Of a stretch of DNA of 40,145 nucleotides, positions 128 through 28,606 are shown in pieces; the first letter of the stretch is position 1, and the number at the start of each line of letters is the position of its first letter. Under the pieces are notes generated by a model that was not told the origin of the DNA, searched no databases, and was given only the letters and a program-made list of their open reading frames with translations. Source of the DNA: a virus; IMG/VR virus record IMGVR_UViG_3300021509_000003. One strand, written 5' to 3'. The position numbers and the translations under genes were made by a program.

Positions 128-587
128 TGATAGCTTCTTCTATGCCATATCCACGCATCAAAAGGTTTTGTAAGGCTTTGGCTGCGTTACCTACATCTAT
201 CAAGCCATCTGCCGATAACTGAGAGGCGGCTTGAAAAGCACGGGCCACTTCAATGCCCTTAAATTTAGCAATACTGGCCAGCCCAATCATGGCCATTTTG
301 AACTCATTAGCGCTTTTAATGCTATGTCTAAAAAATTGCTGGCCACGGTAAATAATTAAAACAGACAATACGTTTTGCAATGCCACTTCTAAATCGCTGA
401 CTTGGAGTTTGAAGCTTTGAAGTTCTCTCCTTGTCCTTCTAAAATTATTATTCAAATTTCTTGTGCTTTCACCAGCCCTTTTTGTTCTTTCTCCTAGCTG
501 CCTGATGGCAGAAGATGTTGACTTGATTTTTTCTAGCGCATCTGCTACTTTAGCTCTTATAAGCAATATTAAGGAGGTATCCGCCAT
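1..587 (-). CDS. Tail tape measure protein, N-terminal part (same gene as 38512-40145; 1-127 is the duplicated overlap)
   Basis: Minus-strand frame of ORF 38512-40143 stays open through the overlap up to ATG at 585-587, which is preceded by GAGGTG (592-597) and an in-frame stop (591-593). Whole gene is 2094 nt, 697 aa. Confidence 0.7.
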   Translation of the reverse strand, partial: MADTSLILLIRAKVADALEKIKSTSSAIRQLGERTKRAGESTRNLNNNFRRTRRELQSFKLQVSDLEVALQNVLSVLIIYRGQQFFRHSIKSANEFKMAMIGLASIAKFKGIEVARAFQAASQLSADGLIDVGNAAKALQNLLMRGYGIEEAITLLNRLKDAAAVNRQGHLSMAEAIVSATEGLKNENSILVDNA

Positions 588-798
588 GTCTCACCTCAAA
601 AAGTTTTTATGGGATGTAATAAAAGGGTTTTTTGTATTTTTCTTTTTGTATTTTTTGTTTATATATTTTGGTGCTCATCATGAAGGTTTTCTCGGTCTTA
701 TTATTATTGTGTCTGGTGTTATTGCCATCATTGGAATTGCTTTAGGGCTATTCAAAGGTATTATTCGTTTCATTGCTCGTTCTGCACGAAACGATTAA
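586..798 (+). CDS. Small membrane protein, 70 aa, two predicted TM helices (holin-like or toxin-like candidate)
   Basis: AAGGAGGT at 571-578, then ATG at 586 after a 7-nt spacer; in-frame internal start of track ORF 463-798. Product MSHLKKFLWDVIKGFFVFFFLYFLFIYFG...IIIVSGVIAIIGIALGLF is strongly hydrophobic. Sits in a ~350-bp stretch with no minus-strand ORF. Confidence 0.4.
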   Translation: MSHLKKFLWDVIKGFFVFFFLYFLFIYFGAHHEGFLGLIIIVSGVIAIIGIALGLFKGIIRFIARSARND

Positions 799-951
799 AT
801 TGTTTTGCATCTGCCCAAACTGCTGCTCTAATCAGAAGTGCCAGTTCTTTATCTCTTTTTATCGCCGATTTAACCGCTTTTTTAAAATAGCTCATTCCAT
901 ACTCCCATGCGTGAATGTGTCCCCGCTCAATCAAAAAAGATATTGCATCCT

Positions 952-1284: not shown

Positions 1285-1647
1285 CTATTGTATATTATAT
1301 TTTTTTTCATCATAAATAATTTCTTCCTCAACTTGCATTTGCTTTTCAGCTTCTGTTACTGGGATTGCCTCAAGTAAAAACTCAATATCTTTAATAAGTA
1401 ATCCTATACAAAATTCCATAGGTTGTTGTGGGCTGTCAAAACATAATGTCCATAAATTTTCTTTTTTACCGCTTTCTTCATAGGCCTTCATAATTGTTTG
1501 CAATTTTTTATAAAATATTAATTTTTCCTTTCTACCGTGTAGATAAAATGTATATCTTCCTGTGCCTTTTGTAAGAGCATATTCTTCCTCTCCTGTTTCA
1601 GTCCTTACCCGCACCCGCCAATTCTCATTTTGTGCTATAAGTCCCAT
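1285..1647 (-). CDS. Hypothetical protein
   Basis: 120-aa ORF overlapping the upstream gene by 13 nt, suggesting an operon. Confidence 0.4.
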   Translation of the reverse strand: MGLIAQNENWRVRVRTETGEEEYALTKGTGRYTFYLHGRKEKLIFYKKLQTIMKAYEESGKKENLWTLCFDSPQQPMEFCIGLLIKDIEFLLEAIPVTEAEKQMQVEEEIIYDEKKYNIQ

Positions 1648-2285
1648 TTTTTAAAATCAAGTTGTCCATTATCCAATTTTATATATGTGCAACTATCAAG
1701 CCAGTCGCCACAATCAGCTATAATTTGACCGCTCTCTATTCTCATTATGCCTGCATAATGAGTGTGCCCTATCACTATTAGATTATAAGTATGGTGTTCC
1801 GCAAACCCGAACACATTGCTGTATATCGCACCAATTGACTTATGCCATTTTTTTCTATTATATTGTTTCCAATGTGAAGGGGGTTTGAAAAACCAAGGGG
1901 CAATCTTTTTCAAAAACCGCCACGGTGCCCAGCTACAAGCAGCGTCAAATTGATATCCATGTGTAAAAAATATATTATTAATAATAAAATAAGGAGGAGT
2001 TTCACAGCTGATGCCTAACAACTTTTGAATTGTTTTGTCTAAATCTGGGTCGTGATTTCCTTTTAGCAAATAACATTTACCACTTAAAATAAGTTTCTTT
2101 AATGCTTTCAATAATAAAGGACCTGTTTTTGATTCCATTATTTCTTTTTCTGTGCAACGCACTCTGTCTATTATGTCCCCTACACCCACTATTAAATCTG
2201 CCTCATCCAAAGCATAATCCACAAAACTTAAAAATTTTTTATTTGTATAAGGAATATGAATATCTGAAAAAGCGATTATTTTCAT
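1635..2285 (-). CDS. Calcineurin-like metallophosphoesterase
   Basis: Motifs in order: FSDIH (DxH), GVGDIIDR (GDxxDR), LKGNHD (GNHD), GHTH. Confidence 0.7.
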   Translation of the reverse strand: MKIIAFSDIHIPYTNKKFLSFVDYALDEADLIVGVGDIIDRVRCTEKEIMESKTGPLLLKALKKLILSGKCYLLKGNHDPDLDKTIQKLLGISCETPPYFIINNIFFTHGYQFDAACSWAPWRFLKKIAPWFFKPPSHWKQYNRKKWHKSIGAIYSNVFGFAEHHTYNLIVIGHTHYAGIMRIESGQIIADCGDWLDSCTYIKLDNGQLDFKKWDL

Positions 2286-2665
2286 AACATCCCTATAAAT
2301 TTAACCATATAAGGAGTGACTTGCTCTATTAACTCCTTTGTTACTAATCCAGCAAATCGTTGCCACAAACCCAGTACTTCTGCCTTTTCACATTCACTCA
2401 GTTCATCAACTGTTTTCCCCCGCACAATTTGGTCAATTCGGTCAAGACACTCTAATGCCTCAACAGGAAGTTTTTTTATATCTTCTCCCAATGCTGACCT
2501 CCAATAACATACAGAAAACTCACTGTGTTCACAGAGCACTTCTGCTAATTCATCTGCTTGAATCATTAACTTATTGTAATTTTTATTAAATTTTTTAAAG
2601 TTGCTTCCAGGACCGGCACAACCTAATCCTAATAATATGCAGAGAAAAAGTATTATTCTTTTCAT
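2282..2665 (-). CDS. Small lipoprotein (lipobox LLGLGC)
   Basis: N-terminus MKRIILFLCILLGLGCAG is a signal peptide with a lipobox cysteine. Start and stop overlap neighbours by 4 nt (ATGA). Confidence 0.55.
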   Translation of the reverse strand: MKRIILFLCILLGLGCAGPGSNFKKFNKNYNKLMIQADELAEVLCEHSEFSVCYWRSALGEDIKKLPVEALECLDRIDQIVRGKTVDELSECEKAEVLGLWQRFAGLVTKELIEQVTPYMVKFIGML

Positions 2666-3675
2666 ATTACCACCTCTATTTCTAACAATTGAATAACATT
2701 AAATATTTTATTAGCGATGGTTACTTTATCGCTACCTGCAAAGAGCAATCCAATTAAAGACAAACCATTTTTAGTCTCTTTAACAACAGCACTACCGCTA
2801 TCTCCTGGAGCACTAAATTTTTGTGGTTTGTGGTCAATCAATATCTGGTCAACAAAATACGCTATATGGCCTTCTTTATCTATTTGAACTTGACATTCGT
2901 AATCAACTGCCCTCACCAATCCTTCTGTTACTCCAGTAGTGCGGCCAGATTTCATAACGGATTCGCCAAGTTTAACCGTGTCCACAGAGATAATATGCCC
3001 CAACTCAAGCAGTTCAGGATCAGCTGTATTATTACGCAATTTTGCTATTGCACAGTCAACTTTATTCTCTGGCATTTCCCCAAATACTTCTATTCCATAT
3101 TTAAAACGAAATTTACTGCCCAAGCAGTGGGCAAGAAAATTCAAAATATGTGTAACAGCTCGTGAATATGGACAATCAGCCGTTTTTATAGGAACAAATT
3201 TAAGAAGCTCTGCTACTTTATCTTCCAGCTTCCCTCCATCATAAGGACCTGGCTGTAAAATGGCATCCCCAATTTTACCTTTATTTACATTGGCAAGAAC
3301 ATGGTTATTGGAAACTAAAACTAATTCGCCTTTATGATATGCCAGAAATCCCGCTGTGCCAGCCGTTATATCCTTATGCCCAACTGAAACGCCCATTTTA
3401 AAAGGACGATATCTTTTTGTGCGGTCAATGGCTACTAATTTTTCTGCTACTTCTAAAAAAGTAATATCTCCTACCTCCATCACATCAGTAGGGATATTTT
3501 CAACTTCTCGTGGGACAACATCTTGGGGTTTGAGTTGGTCCAGAGGCAATTTTTTTCGCACAGTTATTACCAATCCTTCACCTGTAATTTGTCCTTTTCG
3601 GACGAGCAATCCTCTGCCCATTCCCAATACATTTTTCTTTTTATAAAGCGCTTTTTTTGCTTCTTTGCTTATCAT
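2662..3675 (-). CDS. Trypsin/chymotrypsin-fold (S1) serine protease with ~110-aa N-terminal extension
   Basis: Catalytic residues in canonical order: His in VSNNHVLANV, Asp in KVDCAIAKL, Ser in APGDSGSAVV. Confidence 0.6.
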   Translation of the reverse strand: MISKEAKKALYKKKNVLGMGRGLLVRKGQITGEGLVITVRKKLPLDQLKPQDVVPREVENIPTDVMEVGDITFLEVAEKLVAIDRTKRYRPFKMGVSVGHKDITAGTAGFLAYHKGELVLVSNNHVLANVNKGKIGDAILQPGPYDGGKLEDKVAELLKFVPIKTADCPYSRAVTHILNFLAHCLGSKFRFKYGIEVFGEMPENKVDCAIAKLRNNTADPELLELGHIISVDTVKLGESVMKSGRTTGVTEGLVRAVDYECQVQIDKEGHIAYFVDQILIDHKPQKFSAPGDSGSAVVKETKNGLSLIGLLFAGSDKVTIANKIFNVIQLLEIEVVI

Positions 3676-3960
3676 TTATTCTCCTACATAATACATAGTA
3701 AAATCAAACCATTTTTCATTTCTAACATACATTGTTCCTTTTAAAGCATGCTCGTTTATTTTTTCTAAGACATCTCGCACAGGCCAATATTTATAGTGCA
3801 GTTCCATATCTTTAATTTTAAAATCTGCCAAAAATAATTCGCTCCCCCAAGGAAGAAAGTTTTTCCCACTATCTCCTTCTATTTTTTTGGTCAGGATGTG
3901 TGTTTCCCCGATGTAAACTTTCCAATATCCATCAAGTATTTTATTCATTTTATTTGACAA
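3676..3960 (-). CDS. Hypothetical protein
   Basis: 94-aa ORF tightly packed in the same operon. Confidence 0.4.
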   Translation of the reverse strand: MSNKMNKILDGYWKVYIGETHILTKKIEGDSGKNFLPWGSELFLADFKIKDMELHYKYWPVRDVLEKINEHALKGTMYVRNEKWFDFTMYYVGE

Positions 3961-4465
3961 TTTCCTTTTTAATTAACTTACCACCAGCAGCTTGAATTAT
4001 GCAGATAAATATTTCGGGCGTTACCAGCCACGGTTTGATGTGACTCCATCCAAATATCTTTACCAATGGAGCAACACAGCCTTCACTGCAAAAATATTGT
4101 CCTTCTTTTTCCTTTCTCCATTTAGTAAAAAGTCCAAAAGCCGCTATATAATCAAAATATGCTCCTTTATTGGCAAGCCCCTGCATAAAATTATGTATAA
4201 AAACTTGCTGTGCTTCAGAAACTTCCAATTTCCATATTTCATATTTACTTCCTTTAGGGTAGCCTTTTAAAAATGGCCTAATAGCCCATTTTACTTTAAA
4301 AATTTTCCAAATATTTTCTGGCCAACATTCTATGGCATAATCAGGTCCTGCCTGTTCGGCAGGAATTAAATAGGCAATGTGGCTGTATTCACTTTGTGTT
4401 TGATACTCAATTACTTTTGCCAACCAATCATTACCTTTTAAAGCAATATATTTAATTTCAGCCAT
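3950..4465 (-). CDS. Permuted papain-fold cysteine peptidase/amidase (YiiX/C92-like, NlpC/P60 superfamily)
   Basis: His-containing EYSHIAYLIP precedes Cys-containing YFCSEGCV, the permuted order of this family. Contains an in-frame copy of the 16-mer cctgcctgttcggcag. Confidence 0.45.
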   Translation of the reverse strand: MAEIKYIALKGNDWLAKVIEYQTQSEYSHIAYLIPAEQAGPDYAIECWPENIWKIFKVKWAIRPFLKGYPKGSKYEIWKLEVSEAQQVFIHNFMQGLANKGAYFDYIAAFGLFTKWRKEKEGQYFCSEGCVAPLVKIFGWSHIKPWLVTPEIFICIIQAAGGKLIKKEIVK

Positions 4466-4482: not shown

Positions 4483-4519
4483 CCTGCCCGACGGCAGGCG
4501 GGCCTGCCCGCAGACGGGC
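4483..4519 (-). terminator. Two tandem GC-rich hairpins immediately 3' of gene 4519-5271
   Basis: cctgcccgacggcagg (4483-4498, 6-bp stem) and gcccg-caga-cgggc (4506-4519); a short U-tract follows on the minus-strand RNA. Confidence 0.5.
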
Positions 4520-5271
4520 TATACATTATAATCTTCTACTACATAAGGCTCACTCTGCCCGGAAGGAGTAACTAATGTTCCTTCAAATTCAAGAGTGCCA
4601 AAATCATCAGCTAAAAAGTCAATTTCTGAAGAAGGTGTAAATACTGCTTTATAGACACGCACCTTGCAGTTTTTCCCATTTGCCCAATTTTTGCCGTTTA
4701 AAACAAATGCACCCTGCACTGTAGGTTTCTTTGAACCTGCCACTTTTTGATATGTTTTTGCCTCATAGCTGTAGTCCACTTTTAAAACTTGTCCTTCTGT
4801 AATATCTCCGCTAGATAGTGCTTTTATCATTCCCATGTCGTAATCTACTACATAGTCTTCATTTTCTGTATATGTAGTGTCTCCGCCTTCATTTGTTACT
4901 ATTGGTGCTGGGTCTTTCTTCACTCTGTCGTGTGCAAGGGCTACATATTTATCTAGCTTTGCATTGATAGTCTCATCAGTAACAGAACCCTCGCTAACAT
5001 CTTGAAGTGATGCCTCTCCTAAAAGTGCCATAGCTAAAGTATCTTTATCAAAATCATCCAGCGTGAAACTTATTTTTGCAGGCTGATGTAAATAAACAGT
5101 ATCAAGTGCTTGGCCATATGTATCCTTCATTTTGGAAAGACGTTCCTTTTTTTCAGTTGCTTCCTGAATAGCAAATTTAGTAGCATTGCCAATTTGCACC
5201 CAACCTGTGCTATTGCCCTCATCGTCAAATCTATCAAACCAAAGGTCTCCAGCTCCTATAAATCCAGCCAT
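4519..5271 (-). CDS. Putative major tail (tube) protein
   Basis: 250-aa acidic Thr/Gly-rich ORF with GGAGG RBS, followed by hairpins. Size and position resemble lambda gpV-type proteins; no motif-level proof. Confidence 0.35.
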   Translation of the reverse strand: MAGFIGAGDLWFDRFDDEGNSTGWVQIGNATKFAIQEATEKKERLSKMKDTYGQALDTVYLHQPAKISFTLDDFDKDTLAMALLGEASLQDVSEGSVTDETINAKLDKYVALAHDRVKKDPAPIVTNEGGDTTYTENEDYVVDYDMGMIKALSSGDITEGQVLKVDYSYEAKTYQKVAGSKKPTVQGAFVLNGKNWANGKNCKVRVYKAVFTPSSEIDFLADDFGTLEFEGTLVTPSGQSEPYVVEDYNV

Positions 5272-5321: not shown

Positions 5322-6335
5322 CTATGGAACATAAATCCCTCCTTGTGTCTGCTTCCAAGGCACTTTCGTGTATATCATGCTATGTGGCAAGCCTCTTAAC
5401 ATGCGGTAGACTGGACTGCGATACATATTTTCACGGATTTCATCCGATGACCACGCACGGTTTTCAATAACAAGAGCAGCAATCAGGCCCTTAAAAGGGT
5501 ATTTAACAGTATGCAAAACATTTGCACCAACGAAGAGCTGTCTTTCGCTATTATCAATAGTATGTGGACCAATATTCAAACTTGCCTCTTCCAACCCATC
5601 TAAATAAACTTTCATATATGCCCCGTCATAAATCGCTGTAACATATATCAATCTCCCTTTAGGCAAAGTATATTCAACTCTTTTATATCCATCAGGATAA
5701 CCTAACCCATCAATATATAAAGAGAAATATTTTGTTACTAAATCATAATCCCCATCACCGTAAGAAGGCCTGTATTTACATACTATGTGACCTCTATCAA
5801 CTTGAGATATTACCCACACCCCTATTGTAATTCGATTAACAACAGCTAAGCTTGTGTCATCTCCGCAATCTACATAGCCACTATCTCCATCAATCTCAAA
5901 TCCCATTACCCCAGGGGTAACCATATATGGCCTTGCACCACCATGAGGCACACCGTGATTGCCGCTTCCTGACAAGTCAACCCACCCACTAGACCTACAA
6001 TCCAGTGGGTAGCATGATAAGTCCAAAACAGATTGTTTTTTACTCACTTTTTCAACTCCTATTACACCATTATTCACAATTACCTGCCAAATATCGCCAG
6101 CGAGGTCCCGAAGATAAAATTGCGTATCTGGCTGTGCTGTGGTATCCGCTAGAACCAGACGGCCATTGTCGATAGAAAGCACCCATGTAGTTGTTCCATC
6201 TTTATCGTTTATGACTGGATTAGATTCACTTTCAGCCTCCGTGTTTTCCTCTAGTTGCAGCTTGCCATTGATAACTTTCAGTTTCCAGTATTGTTCAACT
6301 GCTGCATCTTCTAGAGGATAATATTCCTTTATCAA
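5322..6335 (-). CDS. LamG/concanavalin-A-like lectin-fold domain protein
   Basis: C-terminal FKGLIAALVIENRAWSSDEIRENMY matches the LamG signature; upstream GD/ITIGVWV beta-sandwich pattern. Confidence 0.5.
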   Translation of the reverse strand: MIKEYYPLEDAAVEQYWKLKVINGKLQLEENTEAESESNPVINDKDGTTTWVLSIDNGRLVLADTTAQPDTQFYLRDLAGDIWQVIVNNGVIGVEKVSKKQSVLDLSCYPLDCRSSGWVDLSGSGNHGVPHGGARPYMVTPGVMGFEIDGDSGYVDCGDDTSLAVVNRITIGVWVISQVDRGHIVCKYRPSYGDGDYDLVTKYFSLYIDGLGYPDGYKRVEYTLPKGRLIYVTAIYDGAYMKVYLDGLEEASLNIGPHTIDNSERQLFVGANVLHTVKYPFKGLIAALVIENRAWSSDEIRENMYRSPVYRMLRGLPHSMIYTKVPWKQTQGGIYVP

Positions 6336-7825
6336 TTATTGCTCCTTCCTATTTCCACCCATCTATCTTCGACATAAACTAAGCTTAAAGTATCGTTTTG
6401 ACCCATGACAAAATCACCTGCCAATTCACTCACCCCTGCTGTATCGCTGAAATTGCATACATTAGCAGAAACATTCACAATCGTAACAACCGTTCCGTCT
6501 ATCACATCTGCCTCCCCCATAATAATGTCACAGCCATCTGCATCATTGCAGATTAACTTCACAGAGCTGGTTGAAGGAGTAAGAGTATAAGAAGCAGGAT
6601 TAGCATCGCCTGAGTCTGTAACAGTAACTTCGTCTGGGGACGAGCCGATGACTCCATTTACCTCTATACTCCTCAATTTTCTTCTGGTTGCAAAGTGGAC
6701 TAACGCCTCCCTCAATGTCACAACTTTAATACCTCTTTCCCTTGCCCAGTCGATAGTGTTTGCAATTCTCTCTTCAGTTAAAGTAGAGAGATTAGCATGA
6801 CCATACAACAAGCCAAGCTCGTTATTTGTGGCTATGGTATCCAGAAAATTTTGAAGCTCCGAATCACTCAGTTTGTCAGTTTCAAAACTTTTTCGAGGCA
6901 GGGCATAAAGCTCGTCAGTCCCAATAGGAAAAGAAACCCTTCCATCACCACCCTTACAAGCAGCCCTGTAAAAATGCGAGACCCAAACTCTCGCCTCTGG
7001 ATTCTCGCTATTGTAAGGATAAACAAAAGCTCCTATCCTCAAATCCATCTCAGACAAAATCCTTTTGGACTCATATAGCTCCTTGTATGCATAGTCCTCA
7101 TGAATCTTCAGAACTGCACCATCCGATACTTGATACGAATTCGCAAGCCCATTTTCAATCGTAACATAATTACCGTTGTCATCTGACCCTGTCCCAGTTA
7201 CCGTTACATTTTCAGGCCCTGCGTTGTCGTCCCAGACTCTGTAGACGTATCCAACTTTGATGGGGCTAAGATACTCTATATAGAGTTTGGTATCTCCTGT
7301 GTTCGCATCTTGGGTCAAATCAGTAGAATAGAAGGCAAGATGATTTAAGCCATGGCTCGCAATTTCCCAGCCCGCATCTTGCATCTCCCGCAGCTGATGA
7401 GGTAATATTCCTGACGGGCCTTCCATTCCATTGATGTTTATTGCTGCCACTGCAGGAACACCTTTCTCCTGGTGAATAGGATAAGCTTTCGTCCAGGTAG
7501 CCCTGACAGCGTCATCATAAACGATAACAAGCATAGGTCTTACCGAAAAATTCCCCAAGTTACAACACAAATCATTTATCAGCACTGAAGAATTTGAAAG
7601 AGAAAGTCGTTTCCATTCCGACGCACTGTTGCACAAGCCATCAGCAGTATCGCAGACGTATAAAACTTTATCGTCTTCTTCGTAACATAAATCACCTGCT
7701 CTACCATCTGTAATAGATGTGCAATCTGTCGTATGTGTTCTATAACGCCAAAAATACCAAGTGGCTGCACTAATAGATGTAACTAGAAACAGGATAAGAA
7801 TCAGTAAAGATAAAATTTTTTTCAT
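6332..7825 (-). CDS. Secreted polysaccharide deacetylase (CE4/NodB-homology domain) with Cys-rich N-region and C-terminal extension
   Basis: Signal/TM segment MKKILSLLILILFLVTSISA. NodB motifs IVYDDA (DD), ASHGLNH (HxxxH), VYPYNSE (xPY). Confidence 0.6.
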   Translation of the reverse strand: MKKILSLLILILFLVTSISAATWYFWRYRTHTTDCTSITDGRAGDLCYEEDDKVLYVCDTADGLCNSASEWKRLSLSNSSVLINDLCCNLGNFSVRPMLVIVYDDAVRATWTKAYPIHQEKGVPAVAAININGMEGPSGILPHQLREMQDAGWEIASHGLNHLAFYSTDLTQDANTGDTKLYIEYLSPIKVGYVYRVWDDNAGPENVTVTGTGSDDNGNYVTIENGLANSYQVSDGAVLKIHEDYAYKELYESKRILSEMDLRIGAFVYPYNSENPEARVWVSHFYRAACKGGDGRVSFPIGTDELYALPRKSFETDKLSDSELQNFLDTIATNNELGLLYGHANLSTLTEERIANTIDWARERGIKVVTLREALVHFATRRKLRSIEVNGVIGSSPDEVTVTDSGDANPASYTLTPSTSSVKLICNDADGCDIIMGEADVIDGTVVTIVNVSANVCNFSDTAGVSELAGDFVMGQNDTLSLVYVEDRWVEIGRSNN

Positions 7826-8949: not shown

Positions 8950-9281
8950 GTCCTGGGTCTTTCTCTCCTCTCACAGCTTAATTCCCAAATACCCATATTT
9001 TCTTTGCGGGCTAAAACTTCCCATTGCTTGGCCTGAGCATCTTCTATAAAATCATGGTTCTGTGGTTCGTTTAATCCAGCTTGGTCTAGGTCTTCTTTTT
9101 TTACCCAAATTTCAGCTTGTTCAGCAGTGGCAAGTTCTGCATCTGCATCTAATTCACGTTCAAAAATAACAGCAGTGAGAGATGTTGGAACACCGTCCCG
9201 AATATAAGAAACTGTTTGAGCTAATTCATTAGTATTAAAAAAAACAGCTATGTCTTGTTGTATTACATTTTGCAAACTCAT
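8946..9281 (-). CDS. Putative head-tail adaptor/connector protein
   Basis: 111-aa acidic ORF; call is by size and position only. Confidence 0.3.
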   Translation of the reverse strand: MSLQNVIQQDIAVFFNTNELAQTVSYIRDGVPTSLTAVIFERELDADAELATAEQAEIWVKKEDLDQAGLNEPQNHDFIEDAQAKQWEVLARKENMGIWELSCERRERPRT

Positions 9282-9562
9282 TGCCGTATCATAAAAAATA
9301 ATATCAAGTTAATTAAACCTCCGCCTGCTGTGCCTAAAAGAGCCGCTACAGCATAAACAATAGCTAGTCTTATCTCTACTTTCCGCAGACGTTTTTCTAT
9401 ATCGCCAATTTCATTTCTATTTTCTATAAAACGTACACTAGTATTTTCTAACTGCCCTTCTATCCGGCTAATTTTCACTATTAATTGCTCCTGGCCGTTC
9501 TTTAAATAACGAATATCCTCAGCTAATTGCTTGAGATAATCTTCAGAAAGATCCGGGGGCAT
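9278..9562 (-). CDS. XhlA-like small membrane protein (N-terminal coiled coil, C-terminal TM helix)
   Basis: Coiled-coil heptads then IVYAVAALLGTAGGGLINLILFFMI. ATG at 9560-9562; the track start at 9568 is a TTG two codons upstream. Confidence 0.45.
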   Translation of the reverse strand: MPPDLSEDYLKQLAEDIRYLKNGQEQLIVKISRIEGQLENTSVRFIENRNEIGDIEKRLRKVEIRLAIVYAVAALLGTAGGGLINLILFFMIRQ

Positions 9563-9583
9563 AAACAACCTCTCTTGCCTATC

Positions 9584-10032: not shown

Positions 10033-12390
10033 TTAAGCACCTGGATTCTTATATAAAGCTTTCCAGCTTATGGCTTTTGCGCCTGCTTCAATCCTTACCT
10101 TAAATTCTACGCCATCAACATGCCAGCCTTCCTTTTGTTCAAGAGTAGGGGCCTGTTTCCCATCCAGGAAGAAAATAGTTACAGTCTTTCCTTTTGGTCC
10201 AGCCACATACCAAGCAGTGCCAGCATCATCTAAGCGTCCATCACTAATAACCTTTAAGTTGTATTTACGAAGAATATTAGGTTTGGCCGATACTTTCCCA
10301 CCAGTAGTAGAAAAATCTACATATTGCATGCCAAGCAATTCTTCTACATCCATTCCATCTTCAATACGGACAATTATAAATTGTGGTCTAATGTGAAGTC
10401 TGCGTTTACCGCCAATGTCTTTTTGTTTAAGCATAGCTTTTATGGCTGCTTTAATGGTATCTGTGCTTGGGGCTGCCCCGGCGCCGGCTAAGTTACCATG
10501 ACTAGAATGAAAAAGTGCCACACCATCGCCCATAGTTGGGTTTGTGGTCAAAACTTTATACGCTAAATCGGCTATTTTTCGCCTGGCTGCTGCACCCATT
10601 TCCTTTGGGATTCCAGTTAAGGCATTTAAATCATCATTTATGATTGTTTGTCTTGTGATAGAGAAAAGCTTGCCATAGGTGGCAATTGAATACTTCTCTT
10701 GCTGTTCGCTAACCGTGCCATATTTGTATTCTGCCCCTTCTGGAATTTTATCCAGGTCATCAAATTCACCTGGGCGAACCAGTTTATTTTCTTTAAAATC
10801 GCTAACAGAACCTACACCGCACCATTCACGCCAAGTTTCTGGTTCTTCTTCAAAGCCCTGCATTAAGGCCTTGTTGGCTACATTTTGAAGGATAAGAGGA
10901 AAATCAGAGGAAGTGTGTGTAAAAGCACGTGCTACCATGTCCATTTTGCTTAAGCCTCTACATGGAATATTTGACCTGATAAGACACTCTCTAGCTATTT
11001 CTACCAGAGGACGGTTAGCAAAATCCTCAGCCCCGCTATCTTTAACCTCTTCAGCAGAGACAAAACCAACTCTTAAAAGCAATCCATTCTGAACGGCCCT
11101 ATTAAATTTATCTTTTTCATCCTTACCTGTTACAGGTTCACCAGTTTCCATCCTTCCAACTGGAGTATTTCTTTCAGCCAGTTTTTGAAGAATTAAATCT
11201 TTTGCCCTTTCCACGGTGTATTTTTGCTCAATCATCTCATCCATCAACTTCTCATCAATATTATGCATTTTGCAAAGAGACCTAATCTCCATTACTCGCT
11301 TGCGTTCTGCTTCTTCTCCTTTTTTCCTTGCTTCCTCTATCTCTTTTTGTATTTCTTCAGGATTTTTAATTTCTTCTTTTCTTTTTTCTTCTGCCATTGT
11401 TTTATCCTCCTTTTTATTTTCTTGTCCGACTGTTCGACCCACACCTACCGAGGCATCGGCAGGCACAGGAGTTAAAGAAAACTCAAAAACACTCCATCTT
11501 TGCGCTATGTATGCAGGCCCCTTAAATCCATTCCATTGCTCTTTTTCTTGCAGTTTGAGCCATTTATGAACTTGATATCCAACTGAAACGCCCCGTAATG
11601 TCTGATCTTTAATTTCTTGATATGCTTCCAGGGCCTTTTGTGTAGTGCCAAACTGAATTATGGCACGGCCTTTTTTGTCCTCTTCATCAAGCCAAATTTT
11701 TAAAGGTTTGGCCACTCTTTGATTTGGGTCATGATTTATCAAAATGCTGCCAACTTCTTTTATCGGTTTAAAATTAATAGCGTCTTTTGTATGAAGTAAG
11801 ATTTCTTTTCCATACCAGCGTTCTACTGGCTCTTCTGAGCTAAAGCTCACTTCTACAATGCGGTTTTCATCATCCAGGATGCCACGCATTTCACAAGGAA
11901 AAGTGCGCCGCATTCTGGCGTCAGTAGGAGGGAGGTCTCTTTCATCTTCACTAGTAGGAAGATATGAGTCAGCCTCAAAAGTATCTAGTTGTTTTTCAAC
12001 ATTTTTTTTAAGAGCTGGAGGTTCTTTCCCAAATTTTTCATAATATTTCACGATATGCTTATATACATCTTCTCTATCTTTATCTGGTATGTTTACTCCT
12101 TTCCTAGCCCCATTTAATACCTGCATAGCTAATCTAACGCCATGCCAAACAGCTTGTAATTCATCATTAATTACATCAGCAAATTTTAATTTATAACCTT
12201 GAAATTCTTGCTCATGTTCTGAATCATACCAAAAAAATGCCTTTCTAAATTTTTTCCAATCGATTTTATCTTTATCACCAGACCCATCGCTACTTGCCCA
12301 CTTCCGCACATTTTTTTCAGCTTCATCATGATGATATGGACGCTCTAAATCCTCACATATAGATAAATTAACAAATGGTGTTACCGGCAT
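10033..12390 (-). CDS. Fused prohead protease (HK97/S78-like) + coiled-coil scaffold + major capsid protein (HK97 fold, Mu gpT-like)
   Basis: Protease motifs INHD, LRGVSVGYQ, FEFSLTPVPADASVG; Glu/Lys-rich coiled coil in the middle; capsid-like motifs ALFHSSHGNL and RLHIRPQFIIV. One uninterrupted 785-aa frame with GGAGG RBS. Confidence 0.7.
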   Translation of the reverse strand: MPVTPFVNLSICEDLERPYHHDEAEKNVRKWASSDGSGDKDKIDWKKFRKAFFWYDSEHEQEFQGYKLKFADVINDELQAVWHGVRLAMQVLNGARKGVNIPDKDREDVYKHIVKYYEKFGKEPPALKKNVEKQLDTFEADSYLPTSEDERDLPPTDARMRRTFPCEMRGILDDENRIVEVSFSSEEPVERWYGKEILLHTKDAINFKPIKEVGSILINHDPNQRVAKPLKIWLDEEDKKGRAIIQFGTTQKALEAYQEIKDQTLRGVSVGYQVHKWLKLQEKEQWNGFKGPAYIAQRWSVFEFSLTPVPADASVGVGRTVGQENKKEDKTMAEEKRKEEIKNPEEIQKEIEEARKKGEEAERKRVMEIRSLCKMHNIDEKLMDEMIEQKYTVERAKDLILQKLAERNTPVGRMETGEPVTGKDEKDKFNRAVQNGLLLRVGFVSAEEVKDSGAEDFANRPLVEIARECLIRSNIPCRGLSKMDMVARAFTHTSSDFPLILQNVANKALMQGFEEEPETWREWCGVGSVSDFKENKLVRPGEFDDLDKIPEGAEYKYGTVSEQQEKYSIATYGKLFSITRQTIINDDLNALTGIPKEMGAAARRKIADLAYKVLTTNPTMGDGVALFHSSHGNLAGAGAAPSTDTIKAAIKAMLKQKDIGGKRRLHIRPQFIIVRIEDGMDVEELLGMQYVDFSTTGGKVSAKPNILRKYNLKVISDGRLDDAGTAWYVAGPKGKTVTIFFLDGKQAPTLEQKEGWHVDGVEFKVRIEAGAKAISWKALYKNPGA

Positions 12391-14174
12391 ATTATTCCCT
12401 CCCGCCTGCCTGTTTGCTCAACAGATAAGCCTACCTGCCTGTTCGGCAGATAGGTCTGTCCAATAGGCAAGCTATTTTTAGCCTTTTTTTCTTCTTGAGC
12501 CTTTGCCCAATTTTTGACCCATTGTTTGGCCTGGCTCACTGTCCATTTATCTTTATCAAAAATAAAAGAAATAATTTTTTTACAATCTATACAGTAACGG
12601 GCTTGTATTCCCTTTTTTTCACTGATTGTGATAGTGCGAATTTCATGACCTTTATGTTTTCCCTCTTCTCCAGGAACCGGCACATGAATTTTATTTTCTG
12701 TTACTTCAACTCGAGTTTGAATATCCTGAAATTTTACTTGCATTTGTGATATATCAGTGAGACCTAAATCATTTAAATATTGTTTTTCTTTTGCTCTTTG
12801 ATTGGCTATTTCTTGCCAATCTTTACCTTTAACAGCACATTCATCCGCCAAGCTAGTTAAACCAAGTTGCAGTTCTAACTTCTTTGCCTGAGCTTCTTTC
12901 AATGGGTCAACCCAATCAAAACCTTTGAAAATCCAGCGGTGTTTCAGCCAATTTTCAGGAGCCTTAATAAATCCCTGAACCTGCAAATAGCCGCTCACGA
13001 TGCCATATTTCACAAAGTCTTCCCAGATAGGTTGGAGAAAATATCTTTCAAGTGCTTTCCGGAATGGAAGCATATAATCCCGCAGTTCTAATTCACTATG
13101 CCGAGTAGAAGAATAATTTACATCTGATTTATCACCACTTATTTGTTCATATGAAAGATTTACGCCTCGGCCCATGCCCCGCAAAATAATTTTTACAAAA
13201 TCTGGGAAAGTGCTGCCTGGACGTTTAGGATTGATAACTTCTATTTCTTCTCCTGGGCCAAGATGTTCTACCATTCCAGGAGCTATCTCTATTTCTCTTT
13301 CTTTTGTTTCTGTATTTTGAGTGCTAGTTTGCATGCGTCCCCATATATCAGATGTCTTTATAATTATTCCAAAACAGGCAGCTACTTTGGCAGACATTAG
13401 TTCTGCTTCTAAAAGTTCTGAAAGGTGATAAGCGAGGGGAATAACAGGAGCTAAAAGTGGAATGCCCATCAATTGTCCAGGACGGCGAAAAGGAGAAAAG
13501 TGAATAATATCTTGGGCAGGAATGCGAATGGATTGTTGTTTCAAAATGAATGGATTAGAAATATCTACTTTCCAGAAATGATAAGCAACTATTTTACCTG
13601 TTTGGTCTATCTCAAAACCATTCCAGTTCCAATTATCCTTTTTAGGCGTGCCCATACCACATAAACGGCTATATTCCAGTGCTTCAAGACAAAAAGGGAA
13701 ATCTCTGGATTTATCTATAACTTTGTGGAAAAAAATGCCTCCATCTAAAAATAATTTTAAAATTGCCAGCCGTTCCAGGTCTCCAAAATGAAATTGGTCG
13801 TAATAATCGGCTACTCGTGCCCACTGTTTAAATACATTCTCAGCCTTAGAATTAAATTGTTCGTTATCTGTGAGAGCCTGTGGTGTGCTGCCTCCACCAA
13901 TCATGCGGTTAACAATCAGGTCGATACTGCCACGAACAAAAGATTCATTCCAATATAGATAATTGGCTCTAGCTCTGACTGTTTGCAGGTCTGAGAAATT
14001 ATCATTTGGACCTTCTGCGCTGGTAGTCCAATATGAAGACATGCGGTCTTTAGAAGCAGCTTTTAAATGCCTGCGAACTACTTTTTGAAGATATTCCCGC
14101 TTTGCCTTCCATTTTGGGAAAGCTGCCCAAAAAAAGGCGTCCAGGGCTTTTGAAATGGATTTTAAAATGTTCAT
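12381..14174 (-). CDS. Portal protein, lambda gpB family
   Basis: LSYEQISGDKS... and VKGKDWQEIANQRAKE align with lambda gpB VSYEQLSRNY... and KRGDDYQEIFAQQVRE. Follows a gpW-like gene with ATGA overlap. Confidence 0.85.
   Translation of the reverse strand: MNILKSISKALDAFFWAAFPKWKAKREYLQKVVRRHLKAASKDRMSSYWTTSAEGPNDNFSDLQTVRARANYLYWNESFVRGSIDLIVNRMIGGGSTPQALTDNEQFNSKAENVFKQWARVADYYDQFHFGDLERLAILKLFLDGGIFFHKVIDKSRDFPFCLEALEYSRLCGMGTPKKDNWNWNGFEIDQTGKIVAYHFWKVDISNPFILKQQSIRIPAQDIIHFSPFRRPGQLMGIPLLAPVIPLAYHLSELLEAELMSAKVAACFGIIIKTSDIWGRMQTSTQNTETKEREIEIAPGMVEHLGPGEEIEVINPKRPGSTFPDFVKIILRGMGRGVNLSYEQISGDKSDVNYSSTRHSELELRDYMLPFRKALERYFLQPIWEDFVKYGIVSGYLQVQGFIKAPENWLKHRWIFKGFDWVDPLKEAQAKKLELQLGLTSLADECAVKGKDWQEIANQRAKEKQYLNDLGLTDISQMQVKFQDIQTRVEVTENKIHVPVPGEEGKHKGHEIRTITISEKKGIQARYCIDCKKIISFIFDKDKWTVSQAKQWVKNWAKAQEEKKAKNSLPIGQTYLPNRQVGLSVEQTGRREGIICR
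12401..12460 (-). repeat. GC-rich palindromic element at the portal/capsid junction
   Basis: gcctgcctgtt (12404-12414) and cctgcctgttcggcag (12434-12449); lies in the 3' tail of the portal ORF and upstream of the capsid RBS. Confidence 0.55.
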
Positions 14175-15475: not shown

Positions 15476-17317
15476 TTATCGAAGCCACCCTGGCCTCCTG
15501 GACAACCAAGAATTTTTTAAATGGCGTCTTTGTTGTTGAATTATCTGTTGTGTCTGTTGTGGTGGAGATTCTGTTATAATAGGTTGTAAATATCGCACTT
15601 GAAGATGGTCCGCAGCACAAAAAGCATATACAGAAGCGTCTAAATAGTGATTTTGAGTTGCTACTTGCACCCACTCCTCATAATACCGCAACCCTTTTCT
15701 AATTCTTCTCTTTTCCTCAGCTATTATTTGAGTTGCGTAATCCATACCAGTAGCTTTGTGTAAATTCCAACTGCCTGATTGTCCACTTTCTATTTGAAGT
15801 TTTCTATTGATAGCATCTTTATAATAATCGGTGTTAATCAGAATAAGGCGTAATCCGCCGGGAATAGGTTTATTTTTACCTGGATATTTATCAATAATGC
15901 TTTCACGAAAAGGCACGCCACTCGTTTTAGTGCTCATGCCTTTGATTGCATATACAATACCTCTCCCATTGCGGCGCACCCATTCATAAACTTCATCTGT
16001 GCGATGACCACCGCTGTCAATAAAAGCACGCATAATAGGAATAGTTTTATCGTCCAAACGGTAGGCAGAATAAAACAAAATAAGTTCAAGTTCTTCCCAA
16101 TTATGGGCGAATCCATATCTAATCATCCATGTGGTTAAATCTAAATCATTAGCCCAGGCATGGATGACATAATAAAAACCATCTTCTTGAGTATCTACCC
16201 CAGCAGTGAGAGCCACAGCTTGTGGTGGAACTACTCCAGGGTCAAGATTTCCTCGCAAGCATAAAATTTCTTCTTCTTTACGTTTTTCTATAACTTCTTT
16301 CCAAGGCTCTGCTAAACGACTATTTACAAAATCCATCAGAAGAGCTGGATCATCTTTTGCTTCCAAAAATTCAGCCGCAATTTCTCCCCAAGTAACAAAA
16401 GGAGAATATAAACCAGATAAATGAAATCCTACCTTCCTTCTTTTTGTTGATTTTTCTTCTACAATTTCCCATTTTCCTTGGGTCAACATTTCTTGTTTTT
16501 CACTTTCTTTTATATGCGCATGACATTTTTCACATTCATACCAGGCAATATCTCGAATAATTTCAGGGTCCTTCTCTTCTTTAGGCCACTTAATGTTTTG
16601 AAATTGCAAAAATTGGTATTCTCCACAATATGGACAGGGAACAGCATAACGATATATCACATTACAAGATTGTAATTGCCTCCAAATATTCCCTGTCTCA
16701 AGAGTAGGTGTACTCGTATAAATAATTTTTTTAAAACTTTTAGTATATGTGCTGGTTCTTTTTTTTGCTAAAGCAATTGGGTCGGCTTCTTTGCCAGAAA
16801 ATGGTGGATATTTATCTATTTCATCTAAGATTAGATAGCGTATAGGACGTGAAGATAAAACAGCCGGGGAATTTGACCAGCCTAAAAAAACTGTCATAGA
16901 TTGAAATTTCATTTCTAAAAGCTGGAAGTCAAAAGCGTTTGGAGTTTTCCTATCTCGCAGAACACTACAAGCATCTATACTTGGCTGTAATCTATTTCTA
17001 GAAAAACCCTCTGCTACATCTTGAGTAGGAAAGACAAAAAGAAGTGGACCAGGGTCTTGATGTATAACATATCCAATAAAATTAATTTCTGCTTCTGTTT
17101 TCCCTAATTGAGCAGCGGCGCAAAATACAATTTCTTCTACTTCTATATCGCAAAAAGTATCCATAATAGTACGTAAATATGGAGTTCTTTCTGTTCTCCA
17201 AGGACCTGGCTCTTTTGATGATCTAGGCACAAGCACACGATAGCGGTCAGCCCATTCACTTACTGTGATACCTTCAGGCAATTGAAGAACTCTTTTTTCT
17301 CGTTCAGTCAAATTCAT
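15476..17317 (-). CDS. Terminase large subunit, lambda gpA family
   Basis: Blocks shared with lambda gpA: VSEWAD, CPYCGEYQFLQF...YECEKCHAHI (gpA ACPHCGEEQYLKF...YLCEHNAC), LYSPFVTW (gpA YSPFTTW), LDASVYAFCAA (gpA LDCFVYALAA). Confidence 0.9.
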   Translation of the reverse strand: MNLTEREKRVLQLPEGITVSEWADRYRVLVPRSSKEPGPWRTERTPYLRTIMDTFCDIEVEEIVFCAAAQLGKTEAEINFIGYVIHQDPGPLLFVFPTQDVAEGFSRNRLQPSIDACSVLRDRKTPNAFDFQLLEMKFQSMTVFLGWSNSPAVLSSRPIRYLILDEIDKYPPFSGKEADPIALAKKRTSTYTKSFKKIIYTSTPTLETGNIWRQLQSCNVIYRYAVPCPYCGEYQFLQFQNIKWPKEEKDPEIIRDIAWYECEKCHAHIKESEKQEMLTQGKWEIVEEKSTKRRKVGFHLSGLYSPFVTWGEIAAEFLEAKDDPALLMDFVNSRLAEPWKEVIEKRKEEEILCLRGNLDPGVVPPQAVALTAGVDTQEDGFYYVIHAWANDLDLTTWMIRYGFAHNWEELELILFYSAYRLDDKTIPIMRAFIDSGGHRTDEVYEWVRRNGRGIVYAIKGMSTKTSGVPFRESIIDKYPGKNKPIPGGLRLILINTDYYKDAINRKLQIESGQSGSWNLHKATGMDYATQIIAEEKRRIRKGLRYYEEWVQVATQNHYLDASVYAFCAADHLQVRYLQPIITESPPQQTQQIIQQQRRHLKNSWLSRRPGWLR

Positions 17318-18579: not shown

Positions 18580-19185
18580 TTATTTTTTGTTTGTATAATA
18601 ATGATAACTGTGCCACCATTGATTTATAAATGTCTTTTCTGTTTTTTCTTTTATAATTGGCCAAATCCGGCGGTTTTGAAATAGCTTAGATATAGTTATG
18701 CCAGTCGCTTTCAGTTCTACAATAGGCGTCCGTTTTTTCCCTTTTCTTCTAAATACTCTTTGGCCTAACCAAGATCCTGCTTTCACCATGCGATAAATCC
18801 ATTTACCAGTTTTCATCTTTCTGACTCTTATAGGTAAATATCCACCAATAAATGCACTTTTTATAAATGTTCTTTTACTTCCTTTTTTTATCTTGACCGT
18901 AACTCCTTTTTTTATTTGTCTTGGAGCAAAATATTTAAAAGGAATGGGACCACCTATTATTGTCAATGCAGCTTCAAAATTCCCTCGTGTTGCTTTTTTT
19001 ATAGTTGCTGCCTTTTTAACATCTCCGGCTTTAATATTATATTGTTTGCGAATTTCTTTACTTCCGGTGGTAAACATAGTTTTAGCGGCTCTATTCAAAG
19101 CCGCTACTGTTGCTTGATTAACTGCCCAAGGATTCATTAAAGCTTCTGCAGTAGATATATTTTTTATTTTTAATTCTAAAAACAT
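18580..19185 (-). CDS. Hypothetical basic protein
   Basis: 201-aa Lys/Arg-rich ORF; no recognisable motif. Confidence 0.4.
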   Translation of the reverse strand: MFLELKIKNISTAEALMNPWAVNQATVAALNRAAKTMFTTGSKEIRKQYNIKAGDVKKAATIKKATRGNFEAALTIIGGPIPFKYFAPRQIKKGVTVKIKKGSKRTFIKSAFIGGYLPIRVRKMKTGKWIYRMVKAGSWLGQRVFRRKGKKRTPIVELKATGITISKLFQNRRIWPIIKEKTEKTFINQWWHSYHYYTNKK

Positions 19186-19700
19186 TTCTCTACGAAAAAT
19201 ACATGTTGACCAATTATTTTAGTCATTCGCATCCCTTTTATCCATTCAGGCATAGCCCAATAAGTTGCGATATAATGTGTGGCTCCTGTTGTAATATCTT
19301 GGCATCCTTTCATAACTGCTAGTGCACACGTATAACAATCAAACAGTGCCCCTTCTCCTAATAATGTTTTATCAAGCCGATTAAAAATTTCTTCTGTAAA
19401 TTTCTGCTCTTCTTTTTTTCGCTGTATAGGTGGGAGTGACTCCTTAAAATATTCAATTTTTTTTGCAATGCGTTCTAATAACTCCCTATTTGGGTCCCCA
19501 GGATTAAAACAGCTAAATTGATAAGGTTTAAGAATTTCAATTTTGTAATTTGTCTTATTTTTCATAACTCTATTTCTAACCACGCAGCCAACAGCTAAAC
19601 GGCCACAATGATCTAATCCTCTAGCTTCTCCAAAGATAACAAGGGTCAAAAGTTCTAATTCATTTAATTTATCTAACATTTTGTCCCCCTTTTTCCCCAA
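19176..19700 (-). CDS. SleB-like cell wall hydrolase (endolysin candidate)
   Basis: LTLVIFGEARGLDHCGRLAVGCVVRNRV ... YQFSCFNPGDP matches the SleB/CwlJ hydrolase signature. No signal peptide. Confidence 0.55.
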   Translation of the reverse strand: MGKKGDKMLDKLNELELLTLVIFGEARGLDHCGRLAVGCVVRNRVMKNKTNYKIEILKPYQFSCFNPGDPNRELLERIAKKIEYFKESLPPIQRKKEEQKFTEEIFNRLDKTLLGEGALFDCYTCALAVMKGCQDITTGATHYIATYWAMPEWIKGMRMTKIIGQHVFFVEKCF

Positions 19701-23187: not shown

Positions 23188-23222
23188 GGGCCGGTATTTT
23201 CTAACCCGACAACCCCCGGCCC
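23188..23222 (-). terminator. GC hairpin downstream of gene 23239-23760
   Basis: Inverted repeat GGGCCGG (23188-23194) and CCGGCCC (23216-23222); A/U-rich sequence follows on the minus-strand RNA. Confidence 0.35.
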
Positions 23223-23238
23223 CTGGGCGGCTAAGAGT

Positions 23239-23760
23239 TTAAGGAGGTGTAGGTATGCCAGCCAACTTTTGTCCTTTATTTTTCCTTAATGCTTCCACCA
23301 TAAGCCATAATTTTGTTAAAGCAGTTAATGCCTCGTAATATTCTTTTTCAAACTGTTTGCTTTCGGCATTAGAAACATTTCCATCTGCTACTACCTCAAC
23401 AAACTTATTCAGACACTCAGTGCTCTCTTTGAGTGCCTGGCTAACAAGTATTAAAGCTTTCTTATCCACTTTCCCTTCTATTTTGGGCTGTGGCACTAAA
23501 AGAAATCCGGCTTGATTAACTAAATATTCCAAAACTTCTTTTCCAACTTGTTTAGTCAAATAAGGCAAAAGAAAAGCAGGCAAATTATTGAAAGGATTTT
23601 CAGGATTGAGCCATTTATACATAGTATCTGGGCGAATGCCCAGGTGGGAAGCTACTCCATTGATTGGTAATCTTTTCAAATAGAAAACATCATTTAAAAA
23701 CCGCTTGAATTGTCTTGACCATTCTACATGATCCCAATTAATGTAGCGGATATTACCCAT
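23239..23760 (-). CDS. HTH DNA-binding regulatory protein
   Basis: INGVASHLGIRPDTMYKWL HTH near the N-terminus; overlaps the Cro-like gene by 8 nt. Confidence 0.4.
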   Translation of the reverse strand: MGNIRYINWDHVEWSRQFKRFLNDVFYLKRLPINGVASHLGIRPDTMYKWLNPENPFNNLPAFLLPYLTKQVGKEVLEYLVNQAGFLLVPQPKIEGKVDKKALILVSQALKESTECLNKFVEVVADGNVSNAESKQFEKEYYEALTALTKLWLMVEALRKNKGQKLAGIPTPP

Positions 23761-23986
23761 TATCTACTTCCTTGTGAAATTTGGATTTATGATAACAATT
23801 TTTTCTGGTAATCTTTTGTAAAAGATGAGGAAAATCTTGTGGTGATGCCCAAAATTCCAATGGAAATTCAGAAATCATTGCAAGTTTTCGAGCAACAGTG
23901 AGGGATGGTTTCTTGCGGTTGTGCAAAATATCATTTAAATGCTGGGGTGTTATCCCAGCTTTTAATGCTATGTCTTTTTGTTTCAT
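23753..23986 (-). CDS. Cro-like XRE-family HTH regulator
   Basis: DIALKAGITPQHLNDILHNRKKPSLTVARKLAMI is an XRE HTH; divergent from the repressor gene. Start lies 10 bp from the -10 hexamer, so the mRNA is probably leaderless. Confidence 0.6.
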   Translation of the reverse strand: MKQKDIALKAGITPQHLNDILHNRKKPSLTVARKLAMISEFPLEFWASPQDFPHLLQKITRKNCYHKSKFHKEVDNG

Positions 23987-28276: not shown

Positions 28277-28606
28277 TTACGCTGGTTCATTGCAACTCAT
28301 AAGTTTTTTGAATATACTAGGCTTGCATGGATAAAATCCATCTTCACCTTTAACTATATAGTCTCCTATATTGGCTTTCCTTGCTCCTTTAGGTGTAAAT
28401 ATCTTCAATCCATTTTTTCTCACCACGTTTTCAAACTCTTCCCAAGTCCACTTTCTTGCTGAGGGGTGCAATCCTGTAAAGCCAATAACTTCTCTTAAAT
28501 TATCACCAGTCCATTGTATTGCCTCTATTACAATCGGCTTTTTTCTATACTTTTTAATTGGCATAATGTTCCTCCTGTTAAAGGTATTTTTACGCTGCTC
28601 CTTCAA
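28277..28606 (-). CDS. Hypothetical protein (last gene of tail operon)
   Basis: 109-aa ORF. Confidence 0.4.
   Translation of the reverse strand: MKEQRKNTFNRRNIMPIKKYRKKPIVIEAIQWTGDNLREVIGFTGLHPSARKWTWEEFENVVRKNGLKIFTPKGARKANIGDYIVKGEDGFYPCKPSIFKKLMSCNEPA

Follow-up and report, generated by a model that had tools for sequence, protein, structure and literature searches.

A conserved small gene antisense to the chaperone–tape measure junction of a temperate siphovirus and its predicted two-helix membrane protein

Small membrane proteins readily escape notice when their genes lie within the structural operons of phages. In the handful of cases examined so far (HK97 gp15, T4 Imm and TP-J34 Ltp), the product was an exclusion protein that targets the tape measure protein (TMP). 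The gene for HK97 gp15, gene 15, was the original "moron" and lies between the frameshifted chaperone genes 13/14 and the TMP gene 16 (PMC3594210). Its product, a small protein of the inner membrane, prevents the genomes of HK97-like phages from entering the cell (Cumby et al. 2012, summarised in PMC3594210). The determinants of escape from gp15 and Ltp have been mapped to the tail or the TMP, and T4 Imm binds the TMP directly. Here we analyse the viral record IMGVR_UViG_3300021509_000003, a stretch of 40,145 nucleotides (nt) that is hereafter called the window, in which a small open reading frame (ORF) on the plus strand occupies the junction between the tail assembly chaperone and TMP genes (Table 1). 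We found an orphan family of proteins with two transmembrane (TM) helices, antisense at the junction of the frameshifted chaperone product (GT) and the TMP and with a conserved head-to-head overlap of start codons; the architecture is unusual and the family tiny. The explanation that we favour as a whole, and hold with middling confidence, is an antisense moron that encodes an inner-membrane hairpin protein and is expressed from the prophage, with superinfection exclusion as its most likely role.

What the window shares with HK97 is a small membrane-protein gene at the chaperone/TMP junction of a temperate siphovirus, where it forms extra DNA in comparison with phages in which GT abuts the TMP gene. 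On the other hand, the small gene of the window differs from that of gp15 in being antisense, in its two predicted TM helices and in its 2-nt overlap with the TMP start codon. What would be shared with T4 Imm and TP-J34 Ltp is, by analogy, a mechanism in which small phage envelope proteins stop genome translocation via the TMP. However, Imm has a core of several helices and stems from a lytic myovirus, in which its gene is early; Ltp is a lipoprotein; and neither gene lies beside that of the TMP. Orientation is the likeness to lambda bor, a moron that runs opposite to the late operon, so that a gene for a prophage-expressed envelope protein stands antisense in the late region. The bor gene, however, encodes a lipoprotein, lies by the lysis genes and is not known to overlap the start codon of any structural gene or to be related to the small gene by sequence.

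We examined the start region of the small ORF. The initial annotation had described AAGGAGGT, here read as a Shine-Dalgarno (SD) motif, a 7-nt spacer, an ATG at 586, an ORF of 70 amino acids (aa) and a 2-nt start overlap with the TMP gene, and all of these were found: the spacer ATCCGCC (579-585) separates AAGGAGGT from the ATG (586-588), and positions 586-587 belong to both start codons. In the contig L086, the diverged relative introduced below, the position of the SD motif reads AAAGGGGC, with the purine-rich AAAGGGG 8 nt 5' of the small-gene start, and the SD-like site of the TMP gene has the counterpart GGTGGAG. The genome contains two copies of AAGGAGGT against 1.17 expected, which alone is not significant, and SD-like motifs were present in 22 of the 35 other genes checked in the window genome. 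The ORF was called as a gene in both lineages by the JGI/ENA pipelines (P0001, P0006, P0007 and P0008). A longer version of 111 aa starting from GTG 463 is less likely but conceivable: the SD motif with its ATG and the N-terminal MS are conserved, which speaks against it, while the overlap of its extra part with TMP coding keeps it in view. Furthermore, the GC skew, which is negative nearly genome-wide given the minus-strand genes, turns positive in this part of the genome only over approximately 481-810, the sign expected from plus-strand coding. Note that the sole other AAGGAGGT of the genome lies at 23241-23248 on the plus strand, 6 nt before ATG 23255, which opens an ORF of about 24 codons by visual count; this ORF runs opposite to the 3' part of the CII-like gene, a G+C-rich stretch (23206-23232) precedes it, and this second motif with its short ORF is probably due to chance.

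The key comparison was with L086, a contig of a Ca. Desulfofervidaceae metagenome-assembled genome (MAG), and the contigs L087-L089 that are nearly identical to it. The chaperone of L086 is 67% identical to that of the window, the distance from the chaperone stop to the TMP start is 388 nt, and an antisense ORF of 78 codons (5466-5702, minus strand) starts in the same CATG as the TMP gene and overlaps the end of the chaperone extension convergently by 26 nt. The two small proteins are 56% identical, at a nucleotide identity of only 54% in 589-769, the segment in which nothing else is coded, and of 83% in 770-798. When the comparison was repeated on an alignment built solely from nucleotides, the differences in 589-769 were distributed over plus-frame codon positions 1, 2 and 3 as 29/14/40 (chi-square p = 1e-5), a shape like that of the neighbouring genes (19/8/47 for the chaperone, and 19/6/28 for its extension in 799-951). 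The plus frame was the only one of the six that is stop-free in both genomes, and it gave an aa identity of 28/56 against 10-18 for the other frames. Both indels between the two small genes are 12 nt long and in frame, and the stretch ALGLFKGIIRFIAR was kept despite some 11 changes that are synonymous or fall on third positions, CGT to AGA among them. When the alignment columns were shuffled 20,000 times, the observed aa identity was never reached (mean 13.5, maximum 23), and the frame remained open in both genomes in just 68 shuffles. The ratio of nonsynonymous to synonymous divergence (pN/pS) was 0.40-0.45 for the small gene, compared with 0.26 for the chaperone, 0.32 for the extension and 0.33 for the TMP, with synonymous sites saturated in all four. 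Given the codon-position pattern, the in-frame indels, the sole open frame and an identity above that of the shuffles, ORF 586-798 is almost certainly a genuine, independently translated protein-coding gene. The same substitution pattern lends support to the earlier suggestion of a small antisense membrane-protein moron at this site.

Closer relatives were also inspected. The near-identical contigs L001, L082 and L083 carry too few substitutions to inform, and L093 (98% identical) showed no change in 468-807, compared with 20 changes in 1-467 and 6 in 808-1276. L093 is DXJV01000024.1, a contig of 2153 bp that is 94-98% identical to the window phage and had been placed in a MAG labelled "Candidatus Heimdallarchaeota"; for so short a contig, this assignment to an archaeon looks like a binning artefact. 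The TMP diverges much faster in L093, namely by 6.3% in 39225-40145 versus 0% in the small-gene region 468-807.

We next searched for relatives of the small protein outside these contigs. The 70- and 78-aa proteins gave nothing significant in Pfam, PHROGs, NCBIfam and PADLOC, the best matches being TIGR04073 (E = 0.011) and DUF2975 (E = 0.033), both far below cut-offs. A word-indexed search of 5.8 billion clustered proteins and a phmmer search of 1.84 billion representatives recovered no protein beyond the two lineages, apart from a single extra phmmer match, P0005, which was discarded as it gave no BLASTP alignment. A six-frame tblastn search of 50,697 phage records found no match to the small protein, pattern scans of viral, genome and metagenome contigs recovered only the window type and the L086 type, and a fold search with the AlphaFold2 model against BFVD gave nothing below E = 1. 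The small protein is an orphan two-TM family, present in phages linked to uncultivated Thermodesulfobacteriota of hydrothermal sediments. As for RNA, a regulatory element in the gap was considered and dropped: the late-strand RNA folds no better than its shuffles (z = +0.26), and the best Rfam candidate, L20_leader, scored 21 bits against a gathering score of 58.7, which is chance level.

The initial annotation had also predicted two hydrophobic helices, and on this point hydropathy and structure prediction agree. Kyte-Doolittle analysis with 19-residue windows marked hydrophobic segments at residues 11-29 and 35-53, and the AlphaFold2 model is a helical hairpin with helices at 3-31 and 35-69 and a mean predicted local distance difference test score (pLDDT) of 86, so that the protein is very probably a membrane hairpin of two TM helices, as modelled. 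The loop that connects the helices comprises 4-6 residues (GAHHEG). Basic residues are found at the N-terminus (K5, K6 and K13) and in the C-terminal tail (K57, R61, R65 and R68); this tail, KGIIRFIARSAR, is strongly basic and is the best-conserved portion of the protein. By the positive-inside rule only, both termini are predicted to be cytoplasmic and the loop periplasmic, and the membrane in question would be the inner membrane.

To place the gene in its setting, we compared the space before the TMP gene among 63 TMP-related loci, for which TMP starts are approximate. Most of them have gaps of less than 90 nt before the TMP, and in several the chaperone extension ends at the TMP start; none carries an antisense two-TM ORF, and one carries an antisense ORF with a single TM segment. 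Since most TMP relatives have little or no spacer, the small-gene segment is extra DNA, as expected of a moron, and its 182-nt space is filled by the small ORF. The insertion is also present in L086 and therefore predates the split of the two lineages. The G+C content of the small-gene region is 0.31, compared with 0.36 for the genome and 0.39-0.45 for the flanks, and the skew is inverted; coding of a hydrophobic protein on the plus strand would also explain both.

The arrangement suggests when such a gene could act. The small gene lies within the late tail operon in antisense orientation and fills the space from the GT stop (770) to the TMP start (587), and the SD motifs of the small gene and the TMP gene each lie within early codons of the other. 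Its mRNA would be complementary to the late GT/TMP transcript over its whole length, and it is oriented like the CI-type repressor gene and opposite to every lytic gene. Because it shares its strand with the CI-like repressor and its mRNA would be complementary to the late transcript, we infer, with about even confidence, expression in lysogeny, from the prophage while the late operon is silent. A late function is hard to reconcile with the antisense arrangement. The protein might then interfere with TMP-dependent channel formation and genome entry by related long-tailed phages, and by analogy with gp15, Imm and Ltp a membrane-level function in superinfection exclusion is possible, although we propose it tentatively. 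If the small protein is an exclusion protein, the GT/TMP junction would be a recurrent home of anti-entry genes across very distant phages, and the locus would offer a compact two-gene system to study how TMP-mediated genome entry is blocked.

A more far-reaching version of the exclusion proposal, which we consider improbable, is that the small protein and the TMP form a genetically locked pair of immunity protein and pore-former, in the manner of colicins, and thus a new TMP-directed exclusion family with a built-in lysis/lysogeny switch. The two genes start head-to-head in one CATG, each with its ribosome-binding site inside the first codons of the other. Late transcription would therefore shut off the exclusion protein through antisense pairing and promoter collision, while in lysogeny the transcript of the exclusion gene would lock the GT/TMP junction by antisense pairing. 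The small protein itself would be specific for its own type of TMP, whose insertion into the membrane it would neutralise.

Several points weigh against the antisense-moron explanation or against its exclusion component. HK97 gp15, the closest described counterpart, is encoded on the sense strand with an annotated terminator, and is a 62-aa protein with a single N-terminal TM segment and a relationship to YebO. The small protein showed no similarity to gp15/YebO, Imm or any defence family by BLASTP, Pfam and PADLOC; in particular, BLASTP against gp15 gave no alignment at E <= 100, and Pfam, searched with the 70-aa protein at E <= 1, yielded neither a YebO-type nor an Imm-type family. No convincing promoter or terminator was found, and consensus sites were not above the numbers in shuffles. 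A conserved TTGATT-N17-TAyTyT block at 523-551 is weak (7/12 matches) and overlaps conserved TMP codons, a terminator is absent after the ORF in the window, and the lone terminator-like site in L086 is not conserved. The site next to the TMP is circumstantial evidence only for a TMP-directed function, and morons have many functions. In addition, the comparison covers only two diverged lineages, so that the evidence for selection consists of one pairwise comparison plus near-identical variants. Finally, a clear-cut holin was not identified among the other genes of the window, which leads to the first of the alternatives.

Class II holins such as pinholin S21 are proteins of about 70 aa with two TM helices, N-in/C-in topology and a charged C-terminus, and their genes are late genes that adjoin the endolysin gene, run in the same direction and often have a dual start. 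If the small protein were such a holin, it would accumulate in the inner membrane late in infection and release the Hydrolase_2 endolysin. The likeness lies in its size, its two TM helices, the predicted N-in/C-in topology and the basic C-terminal tail as in S21, and the endolysin gene of the window has no neighbour encoding a TM protein. However, strand, position and start motif do not fit. The small gene runs against the endolysin and all late genes, lies on the plus strand approximately 18 kb from the endolysin, and would yield an mRNA complementary throughout to the late GT/TMP message at the very time when a holin is needed. There is no dual-start motif (a single N-terminal Met in both lineages), TM1 is rich in Phe and Leu rather than like a signal-anchor-release (SAR) segment, Pfam, PHROGs and NCBIfam gave no holin family match, and late-strand membrane proteins exist after the capsid genes in both phages. 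Thus, of the "holin-like" label in the initial annotation, size and topology stood, while strand, position and family searches spoke against it. We consider a holin unlikely, and keep it in view because no unambiguous holin was identified in the window. With regard to lysis, a GTA_holin_3TM gene follows the capsid gene in L086 (651-1079), and this gene and the hemolysin-like ORF of the window (9278-9568) are candidate lysis proteins, far from the endolysin.

Slightly less probable still is a membrane toxin that resembles type I toxins and serves in addiction or abortive infection, whose translation would be repressed by the late transcript through its complementarity, or by some other antisense RNA. 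The protein is small and very hydrophobic, and its SD motif and start codon lie inside a region transcribed from the opposite strand, which would make antisense pairing automatic. Type I toxins are common in prophages and usually have fewer than 60 aa and one TM segment. The 70-78 aa and two TM helices found here exceed that format, and scans turned up neither a dedicated antitoxin RNA nor a promoter or terminator. The late strand of the gap gives an unstructured RNA, PADLOC gave no match, and the complementary RNA would exist during lytic growth alone, the phase in which an antitoxin matters least. The "toxin-like" label of the initial annotation thus gained no support here, but may yet apply.

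The initial annotation had offered as its own alternative that the ORF is accidental and the region a T-rich regulatory spacer. Such a non-coding spacer might control how the TMP is translated or how the late genes are transcribed. It is true that a T-rich plus strand alone yields hydrophobic codons, that AAGGAGGT is not enriched in the genome, and that antisense frames of TMP genes tend to stay open. In L086 (5466-6470, minus strand), the frame antisense to the TMP is open for 335 codons upstream of the small gene's ATG, and in the window it stays open as far back as 463 at least. Long open antisense frames over TMP genes are therefore not in themselves coding evidence. However, the protein-coding substitution pattern against the diverged relative, with its in-frame indels, an aa identity far above shuffles and the only frame open in both genomes, leads us to reject this alternative as very improbable. 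Moreover, no significant RNA structure, Rfam family or terminator was found in the gap, and most relatives do without any spacer before the TMP. Least probable of all is coding on the minus (late) strand of the gap by a small sense ORF (678-773, 31 aa, in the window; 57 aa in L086), as its ATGA stop/start overlap with the GT stop (773-770) and a codon-complement frame open for 57 codons in L086 are outweighed by stops at 680, 677 and 593 in the window frame, by an aa identity of 18/55 versus 28/56 in the plus frame, and by codon position 1 being the most variable, which is not a coding pattern.

The chaperone side of the junction was then analysed. Tail assembly chaperones of the gpG/gpGT type are reportedly produced by a programmed -1 frameshift. 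According to the initial annotation, all three minus-strand frames are closed over 598-951 and no -1 frameshift extension is possible; both statements proved false. Two stops, at 1012-1010 and 772-770, bound a run of 79 open codons in the -1 frame of the chaperone (codon starts 1 mod 3), and this run spans all of 773-951, so that the three minus frames are all closed only in 588-769 (182 nt). The slippery heptamer T_TTT_TTC, of the X_XXY_YYZ type, lies in the overlap of the two frames, and L086 has T_TTT_TTA at the equivalent spot, likewise two codons past the -1-frame stop. The extension that starts there is 89.6% identical in L090, in which KDFF is retained at the slippery site, and approximately 59-60% identical at the aa level in L086-type contigs. 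The chaperone homologues P0003 (89% identical) and P0004 (67%) are encoded at the same position. The predicted GT fusion of 165 aa matches phrog_14432 over residues 35-163 in a single stretch (E = 5.8e-6), across the junction at residue 89. Because the -1 frame is open, a slippery site is present, the extension is conserved in relatives and the fusion matches phrog_14432, the sequence identifies a normal G/GT-type frameshift chaperone, with a predicted frameshift product. As in the gpG/gpGT scheme, the chaperone (952-1266) and its extension (770-1009) precede the TMP gene; in contrast to that scheme, the extension does not abut the TMP gene but stops 182 nt short of it, and its final 29 nt also belong to the antisense gene. 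For annotation, a stretch before a TMP gene that looks free of ORFs can thus conceal a frameshift extension plus an antisense gene.

The window is a complete circular genome of a temperate siphovirus with a unique length of 40,018 bp, because 127 nt are identical at its two ends (1-127 and 40019-40145) and contigs of relatives read through the junction. The ends split the TMP gene into 38512-40145 plus 1-587; a tblastn search found 282 relatives of the TMP in viral contigs. The minus strand carries nearly all coding, including a cement protein gene in addition to the genes listed in Table 1, and a survey of stretches without minus-strand ORFs found the CI-like repressor gene and ORF 586-798 as the only plus-strand genes.

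Table 1. Coordinates of the small gene, its signals and other features of the window (GT, frameshifted chaperone product; HTH, helix-turn-helix).
Feature	Position	Strand	Basis or remark
Small gene, 70 codons + stop, product MSHLKKFLWDVIKGFFVFFFLYFLFIYFGAHHEGFLGLIIIVSGVIAIIGIALGLFKGIIRFIARSARND	586-798	plus	ORF scan, hydropathy, AlphaFold2, conservation in L086 5466-5702(-)
Shine-Dalgarno AAGGAGGT of small gene	571-578	plus	7 nt 5' of ATG; within TMP codons 4-6
CATG with both start codons	585-588	both	plus ATG 586-588, minus TMP ATG 587-585; head-to-head, 2-nt overlap
Convergent 3'-end overlap, small gene and GT extension	770-798	both	29 nt
Tape measure protein (TMP) gene	1-587 (5' part), continuing over the circular junction into 40145-38512	minus	phrog_7078 and tape-measure PHROGs, weak PF10145 match
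SD-like GAGGTG of TMP gene	592-597	minus	within codons 3-4 of small gene; upstream string TTGAGGTGAGAC
Tail assembly chaperone, gpG-like, 104 aa	952-1266	minus	directly upstream of TMP gene; phrog_7608 match
Slippery heptamer T_TTT_TTC	1006-1000	minus	directly after -1-frame stop 1012-1010
-1 frame extension, gpT-like	1009-770	minus	frame open, protein conserved
Accessory gene	1285-1647	minus	
Metallophosphoesterase	1635-2285	minus	
Lipoprotein with lipobox	2282-2665	minus	
Trypsin/Nal1-like serine protease	2662-3675	minus	
Accessory gene	3676-3960	minus	
Accessory gene	3950-4465	minus	phrog_1128 match
Major tail protein	4519-5271	minus	
XhlA/hemolysin-like ORF, 96 aa, N-terminal coiled coil, C-terminal TM	9278-9568	minus	phrog_1193 'hemolysin' E = 0.004; among head-tail genes
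Protease-capsid fusion, single 785-aa ORF	10033-12390	minus	Peptidase_S78 residues 215-313 and Phage_capsid_4 residues 465-782
Portal	12381-14174	minus	
Large terminase	15476-17317	minus	
Hydrolase_2 endolysin	19176-19700	minus	
CII-like gene	23239-23760	minus	
Cro-like gene	23753-23986	minus	
CI-like HTH repressor	24050-24784	plus	Pfam HTH_3 1.5e-12, Phage_CP76 1.8e-11; divergent from Cro-like and CII-like genes
Integrase	24989-26014	minus	

Elsewhere in the tail region, six accessory genes (1285-4465, minus strand) lie between the major tail protein gene and the chaperone. In L086, the homologue of the major tail protein (29% identical) is followed directly by the chaperone without this six-gene block, and the block of approximately 3.2 kb is therefore an insertion in the tail operon of the window. 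Just upstream of the major tail gene are genes for a Laminin_G_3 protein (5322-6335) and a secreted polysaccharide deacetylase-like protein of 497 aa (6332-7825). In addition, a protein of 787 aa from the tail/baseplate region (28590-30953, minus strand) contains a CAP (cysteine-rich secretory protein) domain with E = 1.7e-20.

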